A stretch of 62,876 bases of DNA, taken from the NCBI RefSeq assembly GCF_004010195.1, contig NC_057718.1:61420301-61483176 (forward strand). The letters are read 5' to 3'. Made by a program: the position numbers and the translations under genes. Below the pieces are notes generated by a model, which ran no database searches, was not told the origin of the DNA, and worked only from the letters and a program-made list of their open reading frames with translations. The DNA comes from Chiloscyllium plagiosum (lineage: Eukaryota). Positions 4,855 to 55,626 of the stretch are shown here, piece by piece (position 1 is the stretch's first letter; the number at the start of each line of letters is the position of its first letter).

Positions 4855-5590
4855 CCCACCAGAGATATATTTCCCTCCCCATCTCTATCCGCTTTCCCTA
4901 AATACCGTTCCCTCTGCGACTACTTTGTCAGGTCCACGCCACCTAACAATCCACCCTCCCCTCCCGGCACCTTCCCCTGCCACTGCAGGAATTGAAAAAC
5001 CATGCACCCACACCTCCCCCCAAGGCCACAAAGGAGCATTCCACATTCATCAAAGTTTCACCTGCACATCCACCAATGTCATGTACTATATCCATTGCTC
5101 CCGATGCGGTCTCCTCTACATTGGGGAGACAGAACACCTACTTACAGAGCACTTCAGGGAACATCTTCAGAACACCTGCACAATCAATCCCACTACCCCA
5201 TGGCCGAACACTAACTCCCTCTCATTCTGCTGAGGGCATGGGGGTCCTGGACCTCCTCTATCGGCACTCCCTCACCACCTGACGCCTGGAGGAAGAATGC
5301 CTCATCGTCCGCCTTGGGATCCTCCAACCCCATGGCATCAATCTAGATCTTCCTTCCCACCTATCTGCGCCACCCTCCTCTCCGACCTATCACCTTTACC
5401 CCACCTCCATCCACCTATTGCACTCTCGGCTACCTTCACCCCAGACCCACCCCCCTTTCCATTTATCTCTCCAACCCCGAGGCTCCCAGCCTCATTCCTG
5501 ATGAAGGGCTTTTGCCCAAAACGTTGATTTTCCTGCTCCTCGGATGCTGCCTGACCTGCTGTGCCTTTCCAACAACCCACTCTTGACTGT
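4855..5590 (+). mobile_element. 5'-truncated Penelope-like element (GIY-YIG region plus pLTR/HHR)
   Basis: FTCTSTNVMYYIHCSRCGLLYIGET...FREH GIY-YIG motif in ORF 4925-5233; ctgatga-a-gggcttttgccc-aaaacgtt at 5498-5525. Confidence 0.88.
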
Positions 5591-7855: not shown

Positions 7856-8349
7856 CCAACCTCACTCCTTTAGTCACTGGGATCATATTTCAACTGGAAT
7901 TTCAACCTTGTAGCCCTTCAGTTGGGTAATCAACTATAAGGGGAACAGAAACAAGTACAATCCAGTTTTTAACCAATATCCAAACTCACACACGAACATA
8001 TGCCTACACTTAAACCCATAGCTGTGTGCACTTACTGGTTGCAATCACGAAGCTGCAATTCAGAAGCATTGCTCATTGAACAATGAGGTCCATTCTGGAC
8101 CTTTGCATTGCTGAGCTCTGCAAACTGAGCACAGGCATACGGATGGAATCCAAGACTTCCCTGGCCTGAACAACTAAGTACCCTGTTAATAGGTTCCAAC
8201 TTCAGACCAAGACTTGGAATAACATTATGCTTAGTTTTATGTTCCTGTTTTTTTTTGTCTGTAACCCTATAAATTCAAAGTTTGTGCTAAGATTTGTAGC
8301 TCGGGTGCTCGTTGTTGTGGTTCTGTTCGCCGAACTGGAAGTTTTTGTT

Positions 8350-8389
8350 GCAAACGTTTCGTCCCCTGGCTAGGCGACATCATCAGTGC
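8350..8389 (-). ncRNA. Minimal type-I hammerhead ribozyme motif
   Basis: Exact reverse complement of 9049-9088. Confidence 0.8.
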
Positions 8390-9048
8390 TTGGGAGCCTC
8401 CTGCGAAGCGCTTCTTTGATGTTTCCTCCGGTTTTATAGTGGTCTGTCCCTGCCGCTTCCGGTTGTCAGTTTCAGCTGTCCGCTGTAGTGGTTGGTATAT
8501 TGGGTCCAGGTCGATGTGTTTGTTGATGGAGTTTGTGGATGAATGCCATGCCTCTAGGAATTCCCTGGCTGTTCTCTGTCTGGCTTGCCCTATGATAGTA
8601 GTGTTGTCCCAGTCGAATTCATGTTGCTTGTTGTCTGCGTGTGTGGCTACTAAGGATCGCTGTTCGTGTCGTTTCGTGGCTAGTTGATGTTCATGTATGC
8701 GGATTATTAGCTTTCTTCCTGTTTGTCCTATATAGTGTTTGTACTATACACTACTAATGTAGTGTACAAAATACTATGCAAGGACTGCACTAAACACTAT
8801 ATAGGACAGGCAACATGAATTCGACTGGGACAACACTACTATCATAGGGCAAGCCAGACAGAGAACAGCCAAGGAATTCCTAGAGGCATGGCATTCATCC
8901 ACAAACTCCATCAACAAACACATCGACCTGGACCCAATATACCAACCACTACAGCGGACAGCTGAAACTGACAACCGGAAGCGGCAGGGACAGACCACTC
9001 TAAACACTGGAGGAAACATCAAAGAAGCGCTTCGCAGGAGGCTCCCAA

Positions 9049-9088
9049 GCACTGATGATGTCGCCTAGCCAGGGGACGAAACGTTTGC
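9049..9088 (+). ncRNA. Minimal type-I hammerhead ribozyme motif
   Basis: GCA-CUGAUGA-U-GUCgCCU(agcc)AGGgGAC-GAAA-CG-UU-UGC: stem I GCA/UGC, stem II, loopless palindromic stem III (AAACGUUU). Confidence 0.8.
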
Positions 9089-9610
9089 AACAAAAACTTC
9101 CAGCTCGGCGAACAGAACCACAACAACCCTATAAATCTTCATCCTCAAGTAGGTGTCTGCCTCCCTTTAAAGGTAAAATTAGATTGAGCATTCCCGATTC
9201 TGACAGCTCTCTGAATGAAGAACTTTCTCTTCTAGCTCTAACTCTCTGCATCTCTTACAGCTACCATTCTTATAAATGCTGTAGAACCATACAACACAAC
9301 AAGTACTGAAACTATGCTTCCTGAGAATGTGATGATTTTTGTAAGTTGTTTAAAACCAGAAAGACTTGCTGCAATGATGACCAAGAGATGCCATTGTCAG
9401 TTACAAGTCACAAGTTGAGTTTGGATATCAGTTATAACCATTGATGTGCCATCGCAGGGTTTCATGTTAATGAATCTTCTACAACAGCCAATGACTTACC
9501 ACCAAGCTTGATGTCAATTAGTTTTACATTCCTAATGGTACCATGCATTAAGGGGTTGCCATTTGTAACTTCAGCAGAGAATTTGAACTGGCCAATCAGC
9601 CCATTGGTTA

Positions 9611-10289: not shown

Positions 10290-11952
10290 ACCAGTATTTT
10301 GCACCTGTGTTTACTGTGGAAAAGGACATGGAAGATATAGAAAGTAGGGAAATAGATGGTGACATCTTGAAATATGTCCATATTACAGAGAAGGAAGTGC
10401 TGGATGTCTTGAAACATAAAAATGGATAAATCCCCAGGACCTGATGAGGTTTACCCGAGAACTCTGAGAAGCAAGGGAAGTGATTGCTGGGCCTCTTATT
10501 GAGATATTTGTATCATCTATAGTCACAGGTGAGATGCCGGAAGACTGGAGGTTGGCTAACGTGGTTCCTTTGTTTAAGAAAGGTGGTAAGGGCAAGCCAG
10601 GGAACCTAAAGTCAGTGGTGGGCAAGTTGTTGGAGGGAATCATAAGGGAAAGGATGTACATGTATTTGGAAAGGCAAGGACTGGTTAGGGATCATCAACA
10701 TGGCTTTGTGTGAGGGAAATCATGTCTCAAACTTGATTGAGTTTGTTGAAGAAGTAACAACGAGGATTGATGAGGGCAGAATGGTAGATGTGATCTTCAG
10801 TAAGGTTCCCCGTGGGAGACTGGTTAGCAAGGTTAGATCTCACAGAATACAGGGAGAACTAGCCATTTGGATACAGAACTGGCTCAAAAGGTCGAAGACA
10901 GAGTGATGGTGGAGGGTTGTTTTTCAGACTGGAGTGACCAATGGAGTGCCACAAGGATTGGTGCTGGGTCCACTACTTTTCATCATTTATATAAATGATT
11001 TGGATATGGGCATAAGAGGTATAGTTAGTAATTTTGCAGATGACACCAAAATTGGAGGTATAGTGGTCAGCGAAGAAGGTTACCTCAGATTACAACCCAA
11101 TCTTGATCAGATGGGCCAATGAGCTGACAAGTGGCAGACAGAGTTTAATTCAGATAAATGCGAGGTGCTGCATTTTAGGAAAACAAATCTTAGCAGGACT
11201 TATACACTTAATAGTAAGGTCCTAGGGAGTGTTGCTGAACAAAGAGACCTTGGCCTGCAGGTTCATAGCTCCTTGAAAGTGGAGTCGCAGGTAGATAGGA
11301 TAGTGAAGGCAGCATTCGTTATGCTTTCCTTTATTGGTCAGAGTATTGAGTACAGAAGTTGGGAGGTCATGTTGCAGTTCTACAGGATATTGGTTAGGCC
11401 ACTGTTGGAATATTGCGTGCAATTCTGGTCTCCTTCCTATTGGAAAGATGTTGTGAAACTTGAAAGGGTTCAGAAAAGATTTACAAGGATGTTGTCAGGG
11501 TTGACGGATTTGAGCTATAGGGAGAGGTTGAATAGGCTGAGGCTGTTTTTCCTCAACAGAAGTCTGAGGGGTGTCCTCAGAGTTTATAAAATCATGAGGG
11601 GCATGGGTAGTATAAATAGACAAAGTCTCTTCCCTGGGATGGGGGAGTCCAGAACTAGAGGACATGGTTTAGAGTGAGTGTGGCAAGATATAAAAGAGAC
11701 CTAAGTGGTAACTTTTTCACACAGAGGATGATATATGTATAGAATGAGCTGCCAGAGGAAGTGGTGGAGGCGAGTACTATTGCAACATTTAAAAGGCATC
11801 TGGATGGGTACATGAATTAGACGGGTTTGAAGGGATATGGGCCGGGTGCTGGCAGGTGGGACTAGATTGGGTTGTGATATCTGGTCGGCTTGGACAAGTT
11901 GGACCGAAGGGTCTGTTTCCATGCTGTACACCTCTATGACTATGACTCTATG
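10290..11952 (+). mobile_element. 5'-truncated CR1/HER1 LINE (RT pseudogene plus tail)
   Basis: [46 protein letters not shown]; frameshifts and stops; (ctatga)n tail. Confidence 0.95.
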
Positions 11953-14096
11953 ACCAGATTCCTCCCTGGGAAAATTGTGTTTACCAACACCATAGCGAGT
12001 GGTTAAAGAATGAAGGTAATGGTTGGTAATCCGCACAAGGTGAATGAATGCCAACTTTTCTGGGGCACTCTCAGGTTAATTCTTTGTATCAGTTCATGAG
12101 AGCTGCTTTTGTTGACAAAATCAGTGAACTAATTTATTAAATGACTATATAGTGAAGTTACATTCAATATAAATGCTACGGAACTGGAATTTTGTTTTCA
12201 CTGAAATGGATAAAAGAAATAATATCTTTAAACAGACAAGAACCAATTGGAAAATGAAAATTGCAGTCAGCTTTAATCAACATCACATTTTAAAAAATGT
12301 AAACCTGAAATAGTCCTAGTTTCCAAAAGCTTTTTTTCGCTATAAAGTTTTCTGTATTAATGTCAGTCCTACACTTCTGGCCTAGATCACAGACAGAGAC
12401 ATCAAGTACCAACCCCAGCTATTAAAACTTTGGTTAGTTGGATATTTCAGTTCTTTCAAGTTGTATCAAGGTATGAGATAGGGAGAGGTTCCATGGTAGA
12501 CACAGAACTCTACCACTTATGTTCTTGATATCTAATGCCCAGATTACATATGTTACCCTGACATACATGACATAAATAGTGGAATAAACTAGTTATTTAA
12601 TTGGCAACTTTAAAAATGCTGGATGCTACATTGGAGAATTATCATTGATAAGTATTTTCTCTGCTGTGTAGGAAACGACTATTCAAATAACATGACAAAC
12701 CTTAAACAAAAGCGAACAGCTTAAACTTTTGTTCACATTGGCTCCTGTCAATCAATGTGTAGTGAGGTGTGATTATTTCAGAAATTGGTCCTGAGTTATC
12801 TGCAGTCTATAACCTCTCGGTTGATTGATTGATTGACAGGTGACTATGTAAGTAATTTTTGGTTATGATTCATGGCAACATCTTAATAAATGACACTACA
12901 AGCTGATGATTTTCAGGTTCTGATTAATTTAAGAATATCTTTTTAATCATTATTTTCCAGTAATTCAGATTTATGATGCCAAACTGTTGAGTTTACTTAC
13001 AGAGTAAGGCTTATGAATTGTACTATGCAGGAAGATCGCATGCAAATTTGGCCTAATTTCTTTCATAATAACATTGGCCTGAATGAGCTTTGCACTGCCA
13101 GACTACCTGAGCACACAACAGGGGGCAGTGTGCAGTGTTTGCTGATAACATATAGTGTAACCAGCCACTCTTAAAGGACTGCCTTTACTGCCTTCCAAAG
13201 GTACACAAAGCCAACACACCGGGACGTCCCATCATGTCGGGCAATGGGACCCTATGTGAGAATCTCTCCGGCTATGTGGAAGGCATCTTGAAACCTCTTG
13301 TACCGGGGATCTCCAGCTTCTGTTGCGACACTACGGATTTCTTACAGAAACTCAGCACCAACGGACCAGTCGAACCGGGAACATTCATCGTCACAATGGA
13401 CGTTTCCTCACTTTACACCAGCATCCCCCATAATGATGGCATCATGGCAACAGCCTCAGTACTCAACACCAACAATTGCCCATCTCCAAACACCATCCTA
13501 CAACTCATCCGCTTTTATCCTTGATCACAACGTCTTCACCTTTGACAACCAGTTCTTCATCCAGACACACGGAACAGCCATGGGGACCAAATTTGCACCC
13601 CAATATGCCAACATTTTTATGCACAGGTTCGAACAAGACTTCTTCTCTATGCAGGATCTCCAACCAACATTGTACATCAGGTACATTGACGATATTTTCT
13701 TCCTCTGGACCCACGGCAAGGAGTCACTGATAAAACTACACAGTGACATCAACAAGTTTCATCCCACCATCAAACGCTTGACTGTCTGTCTCAGTCTTGG
13801 ATACATGCATCTCCATCAAGGATGGACACCTCAGCACCACACTCTACCACAAACAACCTCAATGCTACACTTCTCCAGCTTCCACCCAAAATATATTGAA
13901 ACAGCCATCCCCTATGGACAAGCCCTATGCATACACCGGATCTGCTCAGATGAGGAGGAACGTGACGGACACCTGGAAGTACTCAAGGATGCCCTCACAA
14001 GAACGGGGTACGATGCTCAACTCATCCACTGCCAGTTCCGACGTGCCACAGCAAGGAACCGTAATGACCTCCTCAGGAGACAGACACGGGCTGCAA

Positions 14097-14327
14097 NNNN
14101 NNNNNNNNNNNNNNNNNNNNNNNNNNNNNNNNNNNNNNNNNNNNNNNNNNNNNNNNNNNNNNNNNNNNNNNNNNNNNNNNNNNNNNNNNNNNNNNNNNNN
14201 NNNNNNNNNNNNNNNNNNNNNNNNNNNNNNNNNNNNNNNNNNNNNNNNNNNNNNNNNNNNNNNNNNNNNNNNNNNNNNNNNNNNNNNNNNNNNNNNNNNN
14301 NNNNNNNNNNNNNNNNNNNNNNNNNNN
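14097..14327. other. Assembly gap (231 N) flanked by a ~660 bp direct duplication
   Basis: 13435-14096 is repeated at 14328-14988. Confidence 0.97.
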
Positions 14328-15639
14328 GATGGCATCGCGGCAACAGCCTCAGTACTCAACACCAACAACTGCCAATCTCCAAAACCATCCTACAACTCAT
14401 CCGCTTTTATCCTTGATCACAACGTCTTCACCTTTGACAACCAGTTCTTCATCCAGACACATGGAACAGCCATGGGGACCAAATTTGCACCCCAATATGC
14501 CAACATTTTTATGCACAGGTTCGAACAAGACTTCTTCTCTATGCAGGATCTCCAACCAACATTATACATCAGGTACATTGGCGATATTTTCTTCCTCTGG
14601 ACCCACGGCGAGGAGTCACTGATAAAACTACACAGTGACATCAACAAGTTTCATCCCACCATCAAACTCTTGACTGTCTGTCTCAGTCTTGGACACATGC
14701 GTCTCCATCAAGGATGGACACATCAGCACCACACTCTACCACAAACAACTTCAATGCTACACTTCTCCAGCTTCCACCCAAAACATATTAAAACTGCCAT
14801 TCCCTATGGACAATCCCTATGCATACACCGGATCTGCTCAGATGAGGAGGAACGTGACGGACACCTGGAAGTACTCGAGGATGCCCTCACAAGAACGGGG
14901 TACGATGCTCAACTCATCCACTGCCAGTTCCGACGTGCCACAGCAAGGAACTGTAATGCCCTCCTCAGGAGACAGACATGTGCTGCAACTGACAGGGTAT
15001 CCTTCGTTGTTCAGTACTTCCCAGGAGCTGAAAACTTACGCCATGTTCTTCGTGACCTGCAACACATCAATGAGGATGAGCACCTCACCAAGACCTTCCC
15101 CACACCTCCACTATTTGCCTTTAAACAACCGCCAAACCTCAAACAGATCGTTGCTCATAGCAAGCTGCCCAGCTCTCAGTACAACTCCATACAACCCTGT
15201 CACGGTAGGCACTGCAAGACTTGTTAGAGTATGGACATAGATACCACCATTACACGTGGGGACACCTCCCACCTTGTACATGGCAGGTACTTATGTGACT
15301 CAGCCAACGTTGCCTACCTTATACATTGCAAGCAAGGATGCCCGGAGGCATGGTACATTGGGGAAACCGAGCAAAGGCTACGACTACAGATCACCGCACA
15401 ACAATCAACAGAAGTGTTCCTTCCCAGTTGGGGAACACTTCAGTGGTCCAGGCCATTCAGCCTTGGACCTCCAGGTGACCATCCTCCAAGTGGACTTCGG
15501 GATAGGCAGCAGAGAAAAGTAGCTGAGCAGAGGCTGATAGCTAAGTTCGGTACCCATAGGGAGGGCCTCAATTGGGACCTTGGGTTCATGTCACATTACA
15601 GGTGACCAGGTTATAGTCCAACAGGTTTAATTGGAAGCA

Positions 15640-15674
15640 CACTAGCTTTCGGAGCGACGCTCCTTCATCAGGTG
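15640..15674 (-). ncRNA. Minimal type-I hammerhead ribozyme motif
   Basis: Exact reverse complement of 16030-16064. Confidence 0.85.
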
Positions 15675-16029
15675 ATAGTGGAGGGCTCAATCGTAACACA
15701 GAAGTTATAGCAAAAATTTACAGTGTGATGTAACTGAAATTATACATTGAAAAATTGATCGTCTGTTAAGCCTTTCATCTGTTAGAATACAGTGATCACA
15801 AAACCCTTTTTTTTAAAGTTGCATTCTCAGGATAGCTGTTAACAATGGTGACAACAATGCAACTTTTAAAAAAAGGGTTTTGTGATTTACACATGAAAGA
15901 AGTGAAACTATCACAGTATTCTAACAGATGAAAGACTTAACAGAATCAATTTTTCAATGTATAATTTCAGTTACATCACACTGTAAATTTTTGCTATAAC
16001 TTCTGTGTTACGATTGAGCCCTCCACTAT

Positions 16030-16064
16030 CACCTGATGAAGGAGCGTCGCTCCGAAAGCTAGTG
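16030..16064 (+). ncRNA. Minimal type-I hammerhead ribozyme motif
   Basis: CAC-CUGAUGA-A-GGAGC(guc)GCUCC-GAAA-GC-UA-GUG: stem I CAC/GUG, 5-bp stem II, palindromic AGCU stem III, predicted cleavage after CUA. Confidence 0.85.
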
Positions 16065-16169
16065 TGCTTCCAATTAAACCTGTTGGACTATAACCTGGTG
16101 TTGTGTGATTTTTAACTCTTAAAGGAGACCTTCATTCAGTGGAGACTGACTTCTGTAGGATCTGCATAA

Positions 16170-16600
16170 ATAGAGCACCAGGAAGGAAACTCACACATTC
16201 ATGAAGGAGGTTTTGCATAGGAGGAATTGCAATAGAAAGTCCTTAAGGACTATTCTCAGAAGGAAATGGGACCGGATGGTCAGGGAGGTCAATTCCCAGA
16301 ATCTGACCCTGAGGGATGGTCAGCAATGCTGCACAAACTGTAGTGACTTCACTCAAGTTCACTGAATGTAACCTTTAATGTCCACTGACAAGTACCACAA
16401 CACCAATCTCTTACATTACTCAATGCACCAACCCCCTTTGTCACACAACTGCATATCCTTAGCAATTCAGATGTGACAATCATCACCCAAACATAATGTA
16501 AAACATTCCTGACTTACCCCTTCTCTTTCAGAACAAGGTTGCACACAACAGGAACAGAGAAGTGGTTGGGGGACAAAGACACAAGCATCTCCCAAACCAA
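16170..16600 (+). pseudogene. Harbinger/PIF Myb/SANT-like accessory gene relic with intron
   Basis: WDRMVREVNSQNLTLRDGQQC..CSDF matches the trihelix pattern W..ia..vN....R...qC.kk..D; acceptor ttctctttcag then KVAHNR...GG. Confidence 0.6.
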
Positions 16601-38076: not shown

Positions 38077-41009
38077 ATGTTTAAGAAGGAAATTGAAGGG
38101 AAAGTTAGAACAAGGGAAGTCAAGAAAGACAACTGTATCAATGAGGCAGAAATCTCAGAAAGGGATCATGCCGTAAGGTTGAGTGAAATAGGAGTTGATG
38201 GGAAGGGTGAGGGCAGTAACAAATTAAAAATACTATACATGAATGCACGAAGCATTAGAAATAAGATGGATGAGCTTGAGGCTCTTTTGGAAATTAGCAG
38301 ATATGATATTGTGGGAATAACTGAGACGTGGCTTCAAGTGGACAGGGCCTGGGAAATGAATATTCAAGGCTACACGTGCTTTCGTAAGGACAGACTGACG
38401 GGCAGAGGGGGTGGGGTGGCCAAGTTGGTAAGGGATGATATTCAGTCCCTTGCGCGAGGGGACCTAGAATCAGGGGATGTAGAGTCAGTATGGATATAGC
38501 TGAGAAATTCTAAGGTAAATAGACCCTCTTGGGAGTTATCTACAGGCCCCCAAACAGTAGTCTGGATGTTGGATGTAAGTTGAATCAGGAGCTGAAATTG
38601 GCCTGTCGCAAAGATGTTACTACAGTTGTTATGGGGGATTTCAACATGCAGGTAAACTGGGACAATCAGGATGGTATTGGACCTCAAGAAAGAGACTTTG
38701 TGGAGTGCCTCTGAGATGGATTCTTTGAACAGCTGGTGCTGGAGCCTACCAGGGAGAAGGCAATTCTGGATCTGGTATTGTGCAACGAACCAGAATTGAT
38801 CAGGGACCTCGAAGTGAAGGAGCCATTGGGAAGTAGTGACCATAAAACAATAAGCTTCAATCTGCAATTTGAGAGGGAGAGGGTACAATCGGAAGTGACA
38901 ATATTTCTGTTGAATAAAGGGAACTATGGAGCTATGAGGGAGGAGCTGGCCAAAGTTCAATGGTGCAATACCTTAGCAGGGATGACAGTGGAGGAACAAT
39001 GGCAGATATTTCTGTGTGTAATGCAGAAGATGCAGGATCAGTTCATTCCAAAAAGGAAAAAAGATCCTACGAGGAGGCATGGGATGCCGTGGCTGACGAG
39101 GGAAGTAAAGAAAAATATAAAGTTAAAAGAGAAAAAGTATAACATAGCAAAGATAAGTGGGAAAACGGAGGACTGGGAAGCTTTTAAAGAACAATAGAGG
39201 ACTACTAAGAAGGAAATACGCAGAGAAAAAATGAGGTACGAAGGTAAACTGGCCAAAAATATAAAGGAGGATAGTAAAAGCTTTTTTAGGTATGTGAAAG
39301 GCAAAAAAATGGTTAAGACTAAAATTGGGCCCTTGAAGACAGAAACAGGGGAATATATTACGGGGAACAAAGAAATGGCAGAAGAATTGAATTGGTACTT
39401 CAGATCTGTGTTCACTGGGGAAGACACAAGCAATCTCCCTGAGCTAACAGTGGCTGAAGGACCTGAACTTAAGGAAATTTATATTTGCCAGGAATTGGTG
39501 TTGGAGAGACTGTTAGGTCTGAAAGTTGATAAGTCCCCGGGGCCTGATGGTCTACATCCCAGGGTACTGAAGGAGGTAGCTCAAGAAATCGTGGATGTGT
39601 TGGTGATTATTTTCCAGAGTTCGATAGTTTCGGGATCAGTTCCTGTGGATTGGAGGGTGGCTAATGTTGTACCACTTTTTAAGAAAGGTGGGAGAGAGAA
39701 AGCAGGAAATTATAGACCAGTTAGTCTGACCTCAGTGATGGGAAAGATGCTGGAGTCTATTATAAAGGATGAAATCACGACACATCTGGATAGTAGTAAC
39801 AGGATAGGTCAGAGTCAGCATGGATTTATGAAGGGGAAGTCATGCTTGACTAACCTTCTGCAATTTTTTGAGGATGTGACTCTGAAGATGGGCGAGGGAG
39901 ATCCAGTTGATGTAGTGTACCTGGACTTTCAGAAAGCTTTTGATAAAGTCCCACATAGGAGGTTAGTGAGCAAATTTGGGCACATGGTATTGTGGGCAAA
40001 GTACTAACTTGGATTGAAAGTTGGTTGGCTGATAGGAAATAAAGAGTAGTGATAAATGGCTCCATTTTGGAATGGCGGGCAGTGACCAGTGGGGTACCGC
40101 AGTGATCAGTGCTGGGACCGCAGCTTTTTATAATATATATTAATGATATAGAAGATGGTATTAGTAATAACATTAGCAAATTTGCTGATGATACAAAGCT
40201 GCGTGGCAGGGTGAAATGTGAGGAGGATGTTAGGAGATTACAGGGTGACCTGGACAGGTTTGGTGAGTGGTCAGATGCAGTTTAATGTGGATAAATGTAT
40301 GGTTATCCACTTTGGTGGCAAGCACAGGAAGGTGGATTACTACCTAAATGGAATCAATTTAGGTAAAGGGGCAGTACAAAAAGATCTGGATGTTCTTGTA
40401 CACCAGTCAATGAAGGTAAGCATGCAGGTACAGCAGGTAGTGAAGAAGGCTAATACTATGCTAGCCTTCATAACAAGAGGGATTGAGTATAGAAGCGAAG
40501 AGGTTCTTCTGCAGCTGTACAGGGCCCTGGTGAGACCACACCTGGAGTACTGTGTGCAGTTCTGGTCTCCAAATTTGAGGAAAGACATTCTGGCTACTGA
40601 GGGAGTGCAGCATAGGTTCACAAGGTCAATTCCTGGAATGGCGGGACTACCTTACGCTGAAAGACTGGAGCGACTGGGCTTGTATACCCTTGAGTTTAGA
40701 AGACTGAGAGGGGATCTGATTGAGACATATAAGATTATTAAGGGGTTGGACACTCTGGAGGCAGGAAACATGTTTCCGCTGATGGGTGAGTGCCGAACCA
40801 GAGGACACAGCTTAAAAATACGGGGTAGACCATTTAGGACAGAGACGAGGAGAGATTTCTGCACCTGGAGAGTGGTGGCTGTATGGAATGTTCTGCCCCA
40901 GAGGGCAGTGGAGGCCCAGTCTCTGGATTCATTTAAGAAAGAGTTGGATAGAGCTCTCAAGGATTGTGGAATCAAGGGTTATGGAGATAAGGCAGGAACA
41001 GGATACTGA
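38077..41009 (+). pseudogene. CR1 ORF2 (APE endonuclease plus RT) with several stops and frameshifts
   Basis: YMNARS, ITETW, GDFN, SDH; KSPGPDG, NYRPVSLTS, YLDFQKAFD, KFADDTK. Confidence 0.96.
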
Positions 41010-52557: not shown

Positions 52558-53267
52558 CTGGATAGGGGTCCGGTTTCACATCTTTTCCGGTTTCAGGGGA
52601 AGCTACTTGCAACCAGAAAAGATGCGAAACCTGCTGGTACTCCACCCACCTCCATCCAGGGCCCCAAACAGTCCTTCCAGGTGAGACAGAGTTCACCTGC
52701 CTCTCTTCCAACTGAGTTTACTGCATCAGGTGCTCCCAATGTAGTTTTGTCTACATCGGGGAGACCAAATGTAAACTTAGGGAATGGTTCACCGAGCATC
52801 TTAGCTAGGCCTGCAGGGGCCGACCGGACCTCCCTGTAACCACCCATTTTAATTCCTTTCCCCATCCCTTTCTGACATTACTATCCTTGGTCTTCTCCAT
52901 TGCCACAATGAACCAAACCACGAATTGGAGGAACACACCTCATCTTCCATCTGGGCCACCTACATTGAGTTCTCAATTTCAAATAACGTCCCTTCCCATC
53001 CTCTGACTCCCTTTCCAGCCCCTTCACCTCCCTTCCACTCCTTTCTGCCACCAACCGGATTCATTCCTCCCATTGACCAACCAGGTTATACCCTCTACCT
53101 GTCTTCACCTATCCCTACTTCACTACCCTACCCCCACCACTCCCTTTATCTGCACCTCCCCTTACATCCATCCCCAGTCCTGAAGAAGGGTTACACCCAA
53201 AACATTGACTTCTCCACCTCCTGATGCTGCCAGACTTGCTGTGTTCTTCCAGCCTCCTGCTTGTCAA
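52558..53267 (+). mobile_element. PLE 3' fragment (GIY-YIG plus HHR) with TSD
   Basis: VYCIRCSQC.FVYIGETK..L...F.EH; agtc-ctgaaga-a-gggt-tac-accc-aaaacatt-gact at 53176-53210; TSD ccatgtagac at 52548-52557 and 53268-53277. Confidence 0.88.
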
Positions 53268-53632
53268 CCATGTAGACATGGGAGGAATGATTGGGAAATT
53301 TGCATCAATACAAACATTGCCTGGATGGTTAATAGCAAAGAAATGACTGTCAACTAGAGGAAGAAAGGACATGAATAGGTTGACATGAAGAGGTTTCTTA
53401 CAGGAAGAGAGTTGGTTGAGTTGGCAGAAAAATAGCAAAAAGAAGTTGATCTGGAGGATGTGAGAGTGTGCTTTGCAGAGGGCAACCAAAATAATAAACA
53501 GGGGTTGAGAGGGGTTCAGGACTATTCTCCTTCAGAAGATGAATCTAAAGTAGAGAGACCAACTGGGTACTTCCCCAAAAACTAAACAAACATCAGTGAT
53601 GGTACTTACAGTACTGCAAGAAACACTTTGTC

Positions 53633-55204: not shown

Positions 55205-55440
55205 TTTGTGGAAAAAGTGCTGCTGCAGCCAAAAATGGCTGTGGATATAAATTAGGAGGATGTCTGGAGACAAAGACCCACAGAATGTCACATGTATGGA
55301 TATGAAGGAATCTTCAATCAACAAGGTAAATCCAAACAGCCTGGACTATGGTCTCTTGTGATTACAGAGACAATGTGGACCTACAGCCCCCTGTTCAACA
55401 ACAAATCACTTCTTTTGTTCAACAATAGTTTTGGGCTATA

Positions 55441-55626
55441 ACCAGGTTATAGTCCAACAGCATTATTTGGAAGCAATAGCTTTTGGAACACTGCTCCTTC
55501 ATCAGGTAGTTGGTTGTCCGGTGCTCCGAAAGCTAGTGCTTCCAAATAATCCTGTTGGACTATAACCTGGTGCAGTATGATTTTTAACTTTGTACACTCC
55601 AGTCCAACATCGGCATCTCCAAATCA
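55441..55626. mobile_element. Mini palindromic PLE pLTR element with HHR remnants
   Basis: Inverted arms accaggttatagtccaacag / ctgttggactataacctggt, minus-strand HHR, 3' half of a plus-strand HHR (gctccgaaagctagtg), full tail; same family as 15606-16117. Confidence 0.88.

Follow-up and report, generated by a model that had tools for sequence, protein, structure and literature searches.

Background

Inverted pseudo-long terminal repeats (pLTRs) enclosed in one target-site duplication (TSD) of 8-10 bp, together with an optional tail and self-priming, have been described for Penelope-like elements (PLEs) of a rotifer (Arkhipova et al. 2013, PMC3846280), and pairs of minimal hammerhead ribozymes on opposite strands, 100-700 bp apart, have been reported in Schistosoma (Cervera and De la Pena 2014, PMC4209133). 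The PLE protein of Anolis, Poseidon PAc, nicks and extends both strands and uses two internal start sites (Frangieh et al. 2024, PMC11167929). In this article, we analyse a PLE insertion at positions 13167-16126 of a 62,876-nucleotide stretch of the genome of Chiloscyllium plagiosum (NC_057718.1, positions 61,420,301 to 61,483,176), in which an inverted pLTR stands behind the open reading frame (ORF). The whole stretch is referred to as the window, and all coordinates are positions within it.

The insertion is a decayed, 5'-truncated PLE retrotransposon with a variant order of known parts, and this copy is unable to encode a working protein. Its only unusual feature is the placement of the inverted arm, which lies 3' of the ORF with the spacer lost, whereas the palindrome, the tail and the ribozyme are already known. 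The combination of one 12-bp TSD with an inverted pLTR at the place where the family spacer normally follows the ORF is read here as a single insertion with two microhomology-guided template switches, a reading for which we consider the chances to be about even.

The insertion resembles the canonical endonuclease-containing (EN+) PLE unit in its 5' truncation, in the head-to-head inverted pLTR within one short, probable TSD (12 bp, compared with 8-10 bp in the rotifer), in the tail missing from an end, in microhomology at the joins and in partial duplications that break the assembly (PMC3846280; Craig et al. 2021, PMC8557442). It differs in the order of parts. The canonical unit has the inverted arm at its 5' end, whereas at this locus the arm does not adjoin the 5' end of the unit but is placed after the ORF stop and before the direct arm, as its coordinates confirm for the earlier annotation discussed below; the spacer is replaced and both arms are tail-less. 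The accessible literature yielded no description of an inverted pLTR substituting for the spacer 3' of the ORF, although figures, supplements or texts outside the search may hold one, and the accessible parts of PMC8969392 and of a preprint on non-LTR retrozymes (bioRxiv 10.64898/2026.07.22.740005) contain nothing on this order.

Results

A probable single target-site duplication

The 12-mer ACTCTTAAAGGA occurs only twice in the whole window, both strands considered, at 13167-13178 and 16115-16126. No more than about 5 nt separate the left copy from the boundary of homology on that side (protein homology starts at 13183), and the right copy shares 3 nt (ACT) with the element, whose family match stops at 16117. 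An earlier annotation made from the letters of the window (the original prediction) had proposed this 12-bp TSD at both ends and had named coincidence of the 12-mer among the findings that would refute it. A chance match is not supported: 39,329 random position pairs, compared with the same positional tolerance, contained no repeat as long as 12 letters, the maximum being 11, which was reached once. Contigs of the independent run X15 span 12782-13213 whole, with 35 letters beyond the left TSD, and 16092-16542 whole, with 26 element letters up to 16117, so that both ends of the insertion exist outside this assembly. A separate TSD for the palindrome formed by the pLTR arms was searched for and rejected, the best repeat being 4 nt; one TSD encloses everything. 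The parts of the insertion are as follows.

13167-13178, plus strand: left copy of the TSD, 12 bp (sequence repeat; junction inside independent contig 12782-13213)
13183-14096, plus strand: 5'-truncated PLE coding segment 1, reverse transcriptase (RT) core and thumb, residues 118-429 of protein P0001 (homology to a shark relative; three frame-changing lesions)
14097-14327, no strand: assembly gap of 231 N, which conceals the join of a duplication
14328-15605, plus strand: PLE coding segment 2, P0001 residues 202-642 and the stop TGA at 15603-15605 (homology to a shark relative)
15605-15608, plus strand: ACCA microhomology between ORF end and inverted arm, with the (CA)n-rich spacer of the family missing (loose ends behind 15608 in 55 contigs of run X11)
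15605-15851, minus strand: inverted pLTR/3' arm, 247 nt (loose ends behind 15851 in 43 contigs of run X15)
15640-15674, minus strand: minimal type-I hammerhead, mirror copy (motif scan)
15852-15855, plus strand: 4-nt linker at the head-to-head centre (sequence)
15856-16117, plus strand: sense pLTR/3' arm, 262 nt, tail-less, its last 3 nt (ACT) common with the TSD (family match)
16030-16064, plus strand: minimal type-I hammerhead (motif scan)
16115-16126, plus strand: right copy of the TSD, 12 bp (sequence repeat; junction inside independent contig 16092-16542)

At the 5' join, CTGCCTT is present twice, at 13179-13185 and 13188-13194. Farther out, 300-400 nt upstream of the insertion, the segment 12735-12849 holds a 22-nt inverted repeat (86%) with TTGA-type repeats. 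On the other side, the right-flank contigs of two related organisms, B and C, begin to align exactly at 16205, where they carry 186 and 38 preceding letters, respectively; this suggests a length difference just upstream.

The pLTR arms and their joins

The ACCA that follows from the last base of the stop codon suits the ORF end and the inverted arm alike, and the chance of at least 4 nt of microhomology at this join is 0.015. With this join and the two head-to-head arms, the direct connection of the ORF stop through ACCA to an inverted and then a sense pLTR, as originally predicted, is borne out. The predicted palindrome is likewise present, but its inverted arm runs farther than proposed, to 15851. 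The outer parts of the arms, 15605-15759 and 15945-16099, are complementary at 155 of 155 positions, and the arms differ by six events, all of which fall within the innermost 91 of 246 columns. At the mini-palindrome ACCWGGT the inverted arm stops, 18 nt short of the end of the sense arm, and it is without a 25-nt segment found in the latter. The centre has two occurrences of AACAATG, at 15841 and 15853, and pairing of AATG with CATT (15822) is possible. Each of the three joins has microhomology: ACT with the target, AATG/CATT in the centre and ACCA at the stop. Both arms also have in common a letter (15704/16000) that is absent from 1,998 of 2,072 and 4,105 of 4,222 family reads (96-97%).

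The optional tail of 30-40 nt beyond the pLTR end is absent at this locus and present in the related copy at 55.6 kb. The contrast had been pointed out in the original prediction and holds, the comparison copy (55441-55626) being itself a palindrome.

The family in reads, contigs and the window

The raw run X21, sampled at about 4%, has a mean depth of about 0.3 over eight bins of the flanks (a noisy figure), 97-940 in the ORF bins and 15,720 in the pLTR bin. Depth thus rises from 5' to 3' across the element, and the resulting copy estimates for the family are of the order of 10^3 for the ORF and 10^4 or more for the pLTR. Behind 15608 the other copies run into the (CA)n-rich stretch, and the inverted arm follows the family up to 15851; the ORF end and the inverted arm both point into a spacer, which is missing here. 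One joint among the contigs, of a kind not displayed, connects 15828 to 15430, which is what an inverted arm in front of a truncated ORF would produce. ORF, spacer and pLTR are likely one family, with no sequence obtained that links all of them, and the event at this locus is most likely spacer loss plus an inverted copy rather than a fusion of two elements.

Of the joints, 15 are listed and 1,292 are not; 10 of the 15 skip, on one strand, out of the left arm into the right arm, with varied pivots, across four runs and in 60 reads of X21. The family thus forms head-to-head pLTR palindromes routinely. At 16117 there are 22,055 reads with the tail as their loose end (agreement 0.65), and 8,096 reads depart at 16113-16116 (agreement 0.38-0.48), a pattern that fits many copies ending at or just past 16117.

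The window itself contains two further palindromes. The one at 55441-55626 belongs to the same pLTR family, and its inverted arm has the same first base as the arm at 15605; a 7-nt fold-back precedes the inverted arm, the right arm retains the tail, and the arms have 4 differences in 51 columns. For this copy, a candidate 8-bp TSD is found at 55402/55620, which leaves about 30 bases ahead of the arm unexplained. The palindrome at 8263-9136 belongs to another PLE family and has its own 12-bp TSD (8263-8274 and 9125-9136), with 6 differences between the arms in 322 columns; only the left arm has a surplus of about 36 nt, which is read as the tail. Each of its arms contains an ORF end and a hammerhead-like core, and the inverted arm abuts the left TSD, which is the canonical arrangement.

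Remnants of further PLE families include 3' pieces of the ORF (35-41 bits) at 5042-5590 and 52608-53270, each followed by a spacer and then a worn hammerhead-like end. Stop-to-stop frames of 176-269 amino acids lie at 38442-41009 and one of 184 amino acids at 11123-11677. A pattern scan of public metagenomes for the ORF end gave no matches. Matches to the pLTR pattern (one metagenome, no viral sequence, one prokaryote genome) were dismissed as chance, the similarity being confined to the 20-21-nt pattern.

Coding region and internal duplication

The original prediction spoke of a single PLE ORF, and this did not stand up. A tblastn search with P0001 covers residues 118-642 across the two segments, with repeated frame changes and an in-frame stop at 15225-15227, and the N-terminal ~40% of the protein is missing (homology starts at residue 356 of an 881-amino-acid relative). 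The 231-N gap sits inside the element, so that the two TSD copies are on different contigs of the scaffold. Around the gap, 13435-14096 recurs as 14328-14988, the first 661 nt of segment 2, with 96.4% identity; the 24 differences in 662 columns comprise 16 transitions, and 8 are in CpG context. Lesions common to both duplicates, among them identical deletions and a C (13714/14606) lacking in 186 of 197 and in 238 of 248 reads of the family, show that they derive from a common, already damaged source. Two simple causes of the duplication were rejected. An allelic overlap is at odds with the 3.6% difference, given that run X15 and the window are separated by 4 substitutions among about 1,370 letters of flanks and junctions (~0.3%), and a canonical partial tandem would need room for an ORF end, a spacer and a pLTR, for which the gap of 231 N is too small. 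The 3.6% divergence of the duplicates is about that of the flanks from organisms B and C (about 3%).

An RT followed by a C-terminal GIY-YIG-type motif, as in EN+ PLEs, is recognizable in this copy even with its frame broken. The match to RVT_1 (E 1.9e-6) is weaker than the curated cut-off, and the second RT copy is without a catalytic Asp (YIGD instead of YIDD). Segment 2 contains the Cx4Cx2C linker CHGRHCKTC at 15198-15224 and the GIY-YIG-type motif, with two Cys, at 15318-15362; the window piece itself gave no match to Pfam GIY-YIG, whereas the relative P0014 does match. The four best of 105 relatives, in a search restricted to longer proteins, are shark proteins with 64-69% identity. Proteins of Neptune and Nematis PLEs likewise have a C-terminal GIY-YIG-type domain after a linker of the CX2-5CxxC type (Craig et al. 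2021, PMC8557442), and a linker of this type is present between RT and endonuclease here. The order of RT, Cx4Cx2C linker and GIY-YIG-type motif thus appears to match the Neptune/Nematis type, an assignment by motifs rather than by a tree; the copy differs from those proteins in being broken and in the missing N-terminal part.

Hammerhead motifs

Each pLTR arm contains one minimal hammerhead motif, and the two are on opposite strands. The motif consists of a 3-bp helix I, CUGAUGA, a bulged A, a 5-bp helix II closed by G-C, and GAAA, and continues with a palindromic AGCU in place of helix III and a CUA triplet. The two matches compare with 0.01 expected, and they place a hammerhead at the 3' end of a pLTR. 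The description of both ribozymes as textbook hammerheads could not be upheld: the motifs are of the minimal PLE type, without the three helices and the 6-bp helix I of a canonical type-I hammerhead, Rfam gave no gathering hits in the window, and the fold is no better than that of shuffled sequences (z -1.24). The metazoan PLE hammerheads (PMC4209133) are similar in their short helix I, the bulged base before helix II, the G10.1-C11.1 pair and the palindromic 15.2-16.2 replacing helix III; the helices I and II of 3 and 5 bp compare with 4-5 and 7-8 bp in the Schistosoma families.

A dimer of the two ribozymes in cis was considered and rejected, the motifs being on opposite strands. In a read-through RNA, the hammerhead core is predicted to be paired with the mirror arm (probability 0.9996), and each ribozyme would, according to this model, be locked within a 155-bp duplex. 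Non-LTR retrozymes (bioRxiv 10.64898/2026.07.22.740005) resemble the unit in having a type-I hammerhead in pLTR-derived sequence. They are, however, head-to-tail tandem repeats with a hammerhead per unit, an arrangement that this locus does not have; here the repeats are head to head and attached to an ORF. One more minimal hammerhead motif, grouped with the remnants of further PLE families, lies around 33373. The relaxed scan missed the motif of the 8.3-kb family, and its matches are thus not a census.

Discussion

The original prediction had suggested a template switch within one integration event. This is still the best reading of the locus, given the single TSD and the microhomology at the joins, but a later local rearrangement fits too. 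We infer the following steps. The endonuclease would nick both strands 12 nt apart, and the right nick would prime cDNA synthesis on the pLTR at its tail-less start site via a 3-nt match, with 262 nt copied. A second cDNA would come from a sibling RNA, as in the ordinary palindromes of the family, and AATG/CATT would connect the two cDNAs head to head, a short insert arising by slippage. The strand that copies the second cDNA (247 nt) would leave it at ACCWGGT, and its 3' TGGT would pair with the ACCA that the RNA carries at the ORF stop; the ORF would then be reverse-transcribed up to the 5' truncation at about 13183 and joined to the left target end. Decay that occurred later, or already in the source, would account for the lesions and for the duplication across the gap. 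Because the sense ORF directly follows the left TSD, the bottom strand must under this scheme copy RNA, second cDNA and RNA in turn.

Two-strand nicking and extension and two start sites, as known for Poseidon PAc, account for palindromes and an optional tail (PMC11167929). Poseidon PAc is reported to initiate at RNA sites without homology to the cut DNA, whereas here and in the 8.3-kb control palindrome a 3-nt match is seen, and the switch from cDNA to ORF is not covered in the accessible part of that study. In favor of a single event are the one TSD at both homology boundaries, the lack of a TSD of the palindrome, the microhomology at all three joins, the routine palindromes of the family, the same inverted-arm start in the independent 55441 copy, and the rare letter shared by the arms.

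Several observations weigh against the single insertion. It requires one switch more than a canonical unit, where, as at 8263-9136, the inverted arm sits directly beside the left TSD. None of the pieces listed reaches across the gap, the ACCA join or the centre, and no empty-site join is among the 15 joints listed, the right-flank contigs of organisms B and C aligning only from 16205. The outer arms have 0 differences in 155 positions versus 24 in 662 for the ORF duplicates (P = 0.003, or 0.023 without CpG sites), and the confinement of all six arm differences to the inner 91 of 246 columns has P ~0.003, with the boundary chosen after seeing the data. Barring homogenisation through gene conversion or by the assembler, the arms accordingly seem to be younger than the duplication of the ORF segment.

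Younger arms would be expected if an ordinary 5'-truncated copy, with the order TSD, ORF, spacer, pLTR and TSD, was rearranged later at the DNA level by a template switch in replication or repair, which we regard as possible although unlikely. The top strand would leave at ACCA, copy the local pLTR backwards for 247 nt and return at AATG, with the (CA)n-rich spacer deleted. Such a route would explain why arms with a shared rare letter are identical over 155 nt in a heavily decayed element, and the asymmetric 26-nt extension of the inverted arm suits a four-point switch. The locus also had another internal duplication, the copies of which share private lesions yet are 3.6% apart, compared with ~0.3% for the X15 flanks. 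However, the family forms such palindromes at many loci without an adjacent ORF, the inverted arm has its end base in common with that of the independent 55441 copy, and the six inner arm differences would remain to be explained. It is improbable that the structure arose by nesting, where a nick after the stop of an older copy primes pLTR cDNA via ACCA and replaces the spacer, or that a composite was retrotransposed whole. A PLE protein does cut its own ORF-pLTR junction in vitro (PMC11167929), pLTRs can bring unrelated sequence into a new TSD (PMC3846280), and with about 10^4 or more pLTR copies nesting is likely somewhere; but there is no second TSD and no spacer remnant, two independent events are unlikely to yield identical arms with a shared rare letter, and a copied composite predicts sister copies, none of which is among the joints listed.

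The identity of the arms and the gap also bear on the assembly itself, in which the contig to the right of the gap may have run through near-identical pLTR sequence of another locus, or the arms homogenised, between true ends of a plain truncated copy. The 231-N gap with 662-bp overlap on both sides, the lack of a listed piece spanning the inside, the trouble that such structures cause in short-read assemblies (PMC8557442) and the 155/155 identity, compared with 6/322 and 4/51 differences in the two control palindromes, would all agree with a mis-assembly. The ORF copies, however, share lesions found in about 5% or fewer of the family reads at 13714/14606, which makes a random mis-join of sister copies unlikely, and k-mer overlap would presumably produce neither a join of 4 nt nor a slipped insert at the centre; we consider mis-assembly slightly more improbable still than nesting or a copied composite. 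On one gapped example the mechanisms are inseparable, and it is on the TSD and the joins that we base our preference for a single insertion with template switches.

Conclusions

The PLE integration steps that follow first-strand priming are still without experimental demonstration (PMC11167929). We put forward, as a doubtful proposal, that strands switch recurrently at the mini-palindrome ACCWGGT close to the end of the pLTR, where, in a two-ended insertion, the strand copying the second cDNA leaves it and resumes on RNA. If this is true, one TSD holds segments from both primed strands together with a third, RNA-templated segment, and the locus would be a fossil of the missing step of PLE integration as well as an indication of a route by which pLTRs capture upstream sequence. 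More generally, if the order of parts arose in one event, a strand is able to copy RNA, change to a second cDNA and return to RNA at a single target site, and, with thousands of copies in these genomes, such switches would be countable.

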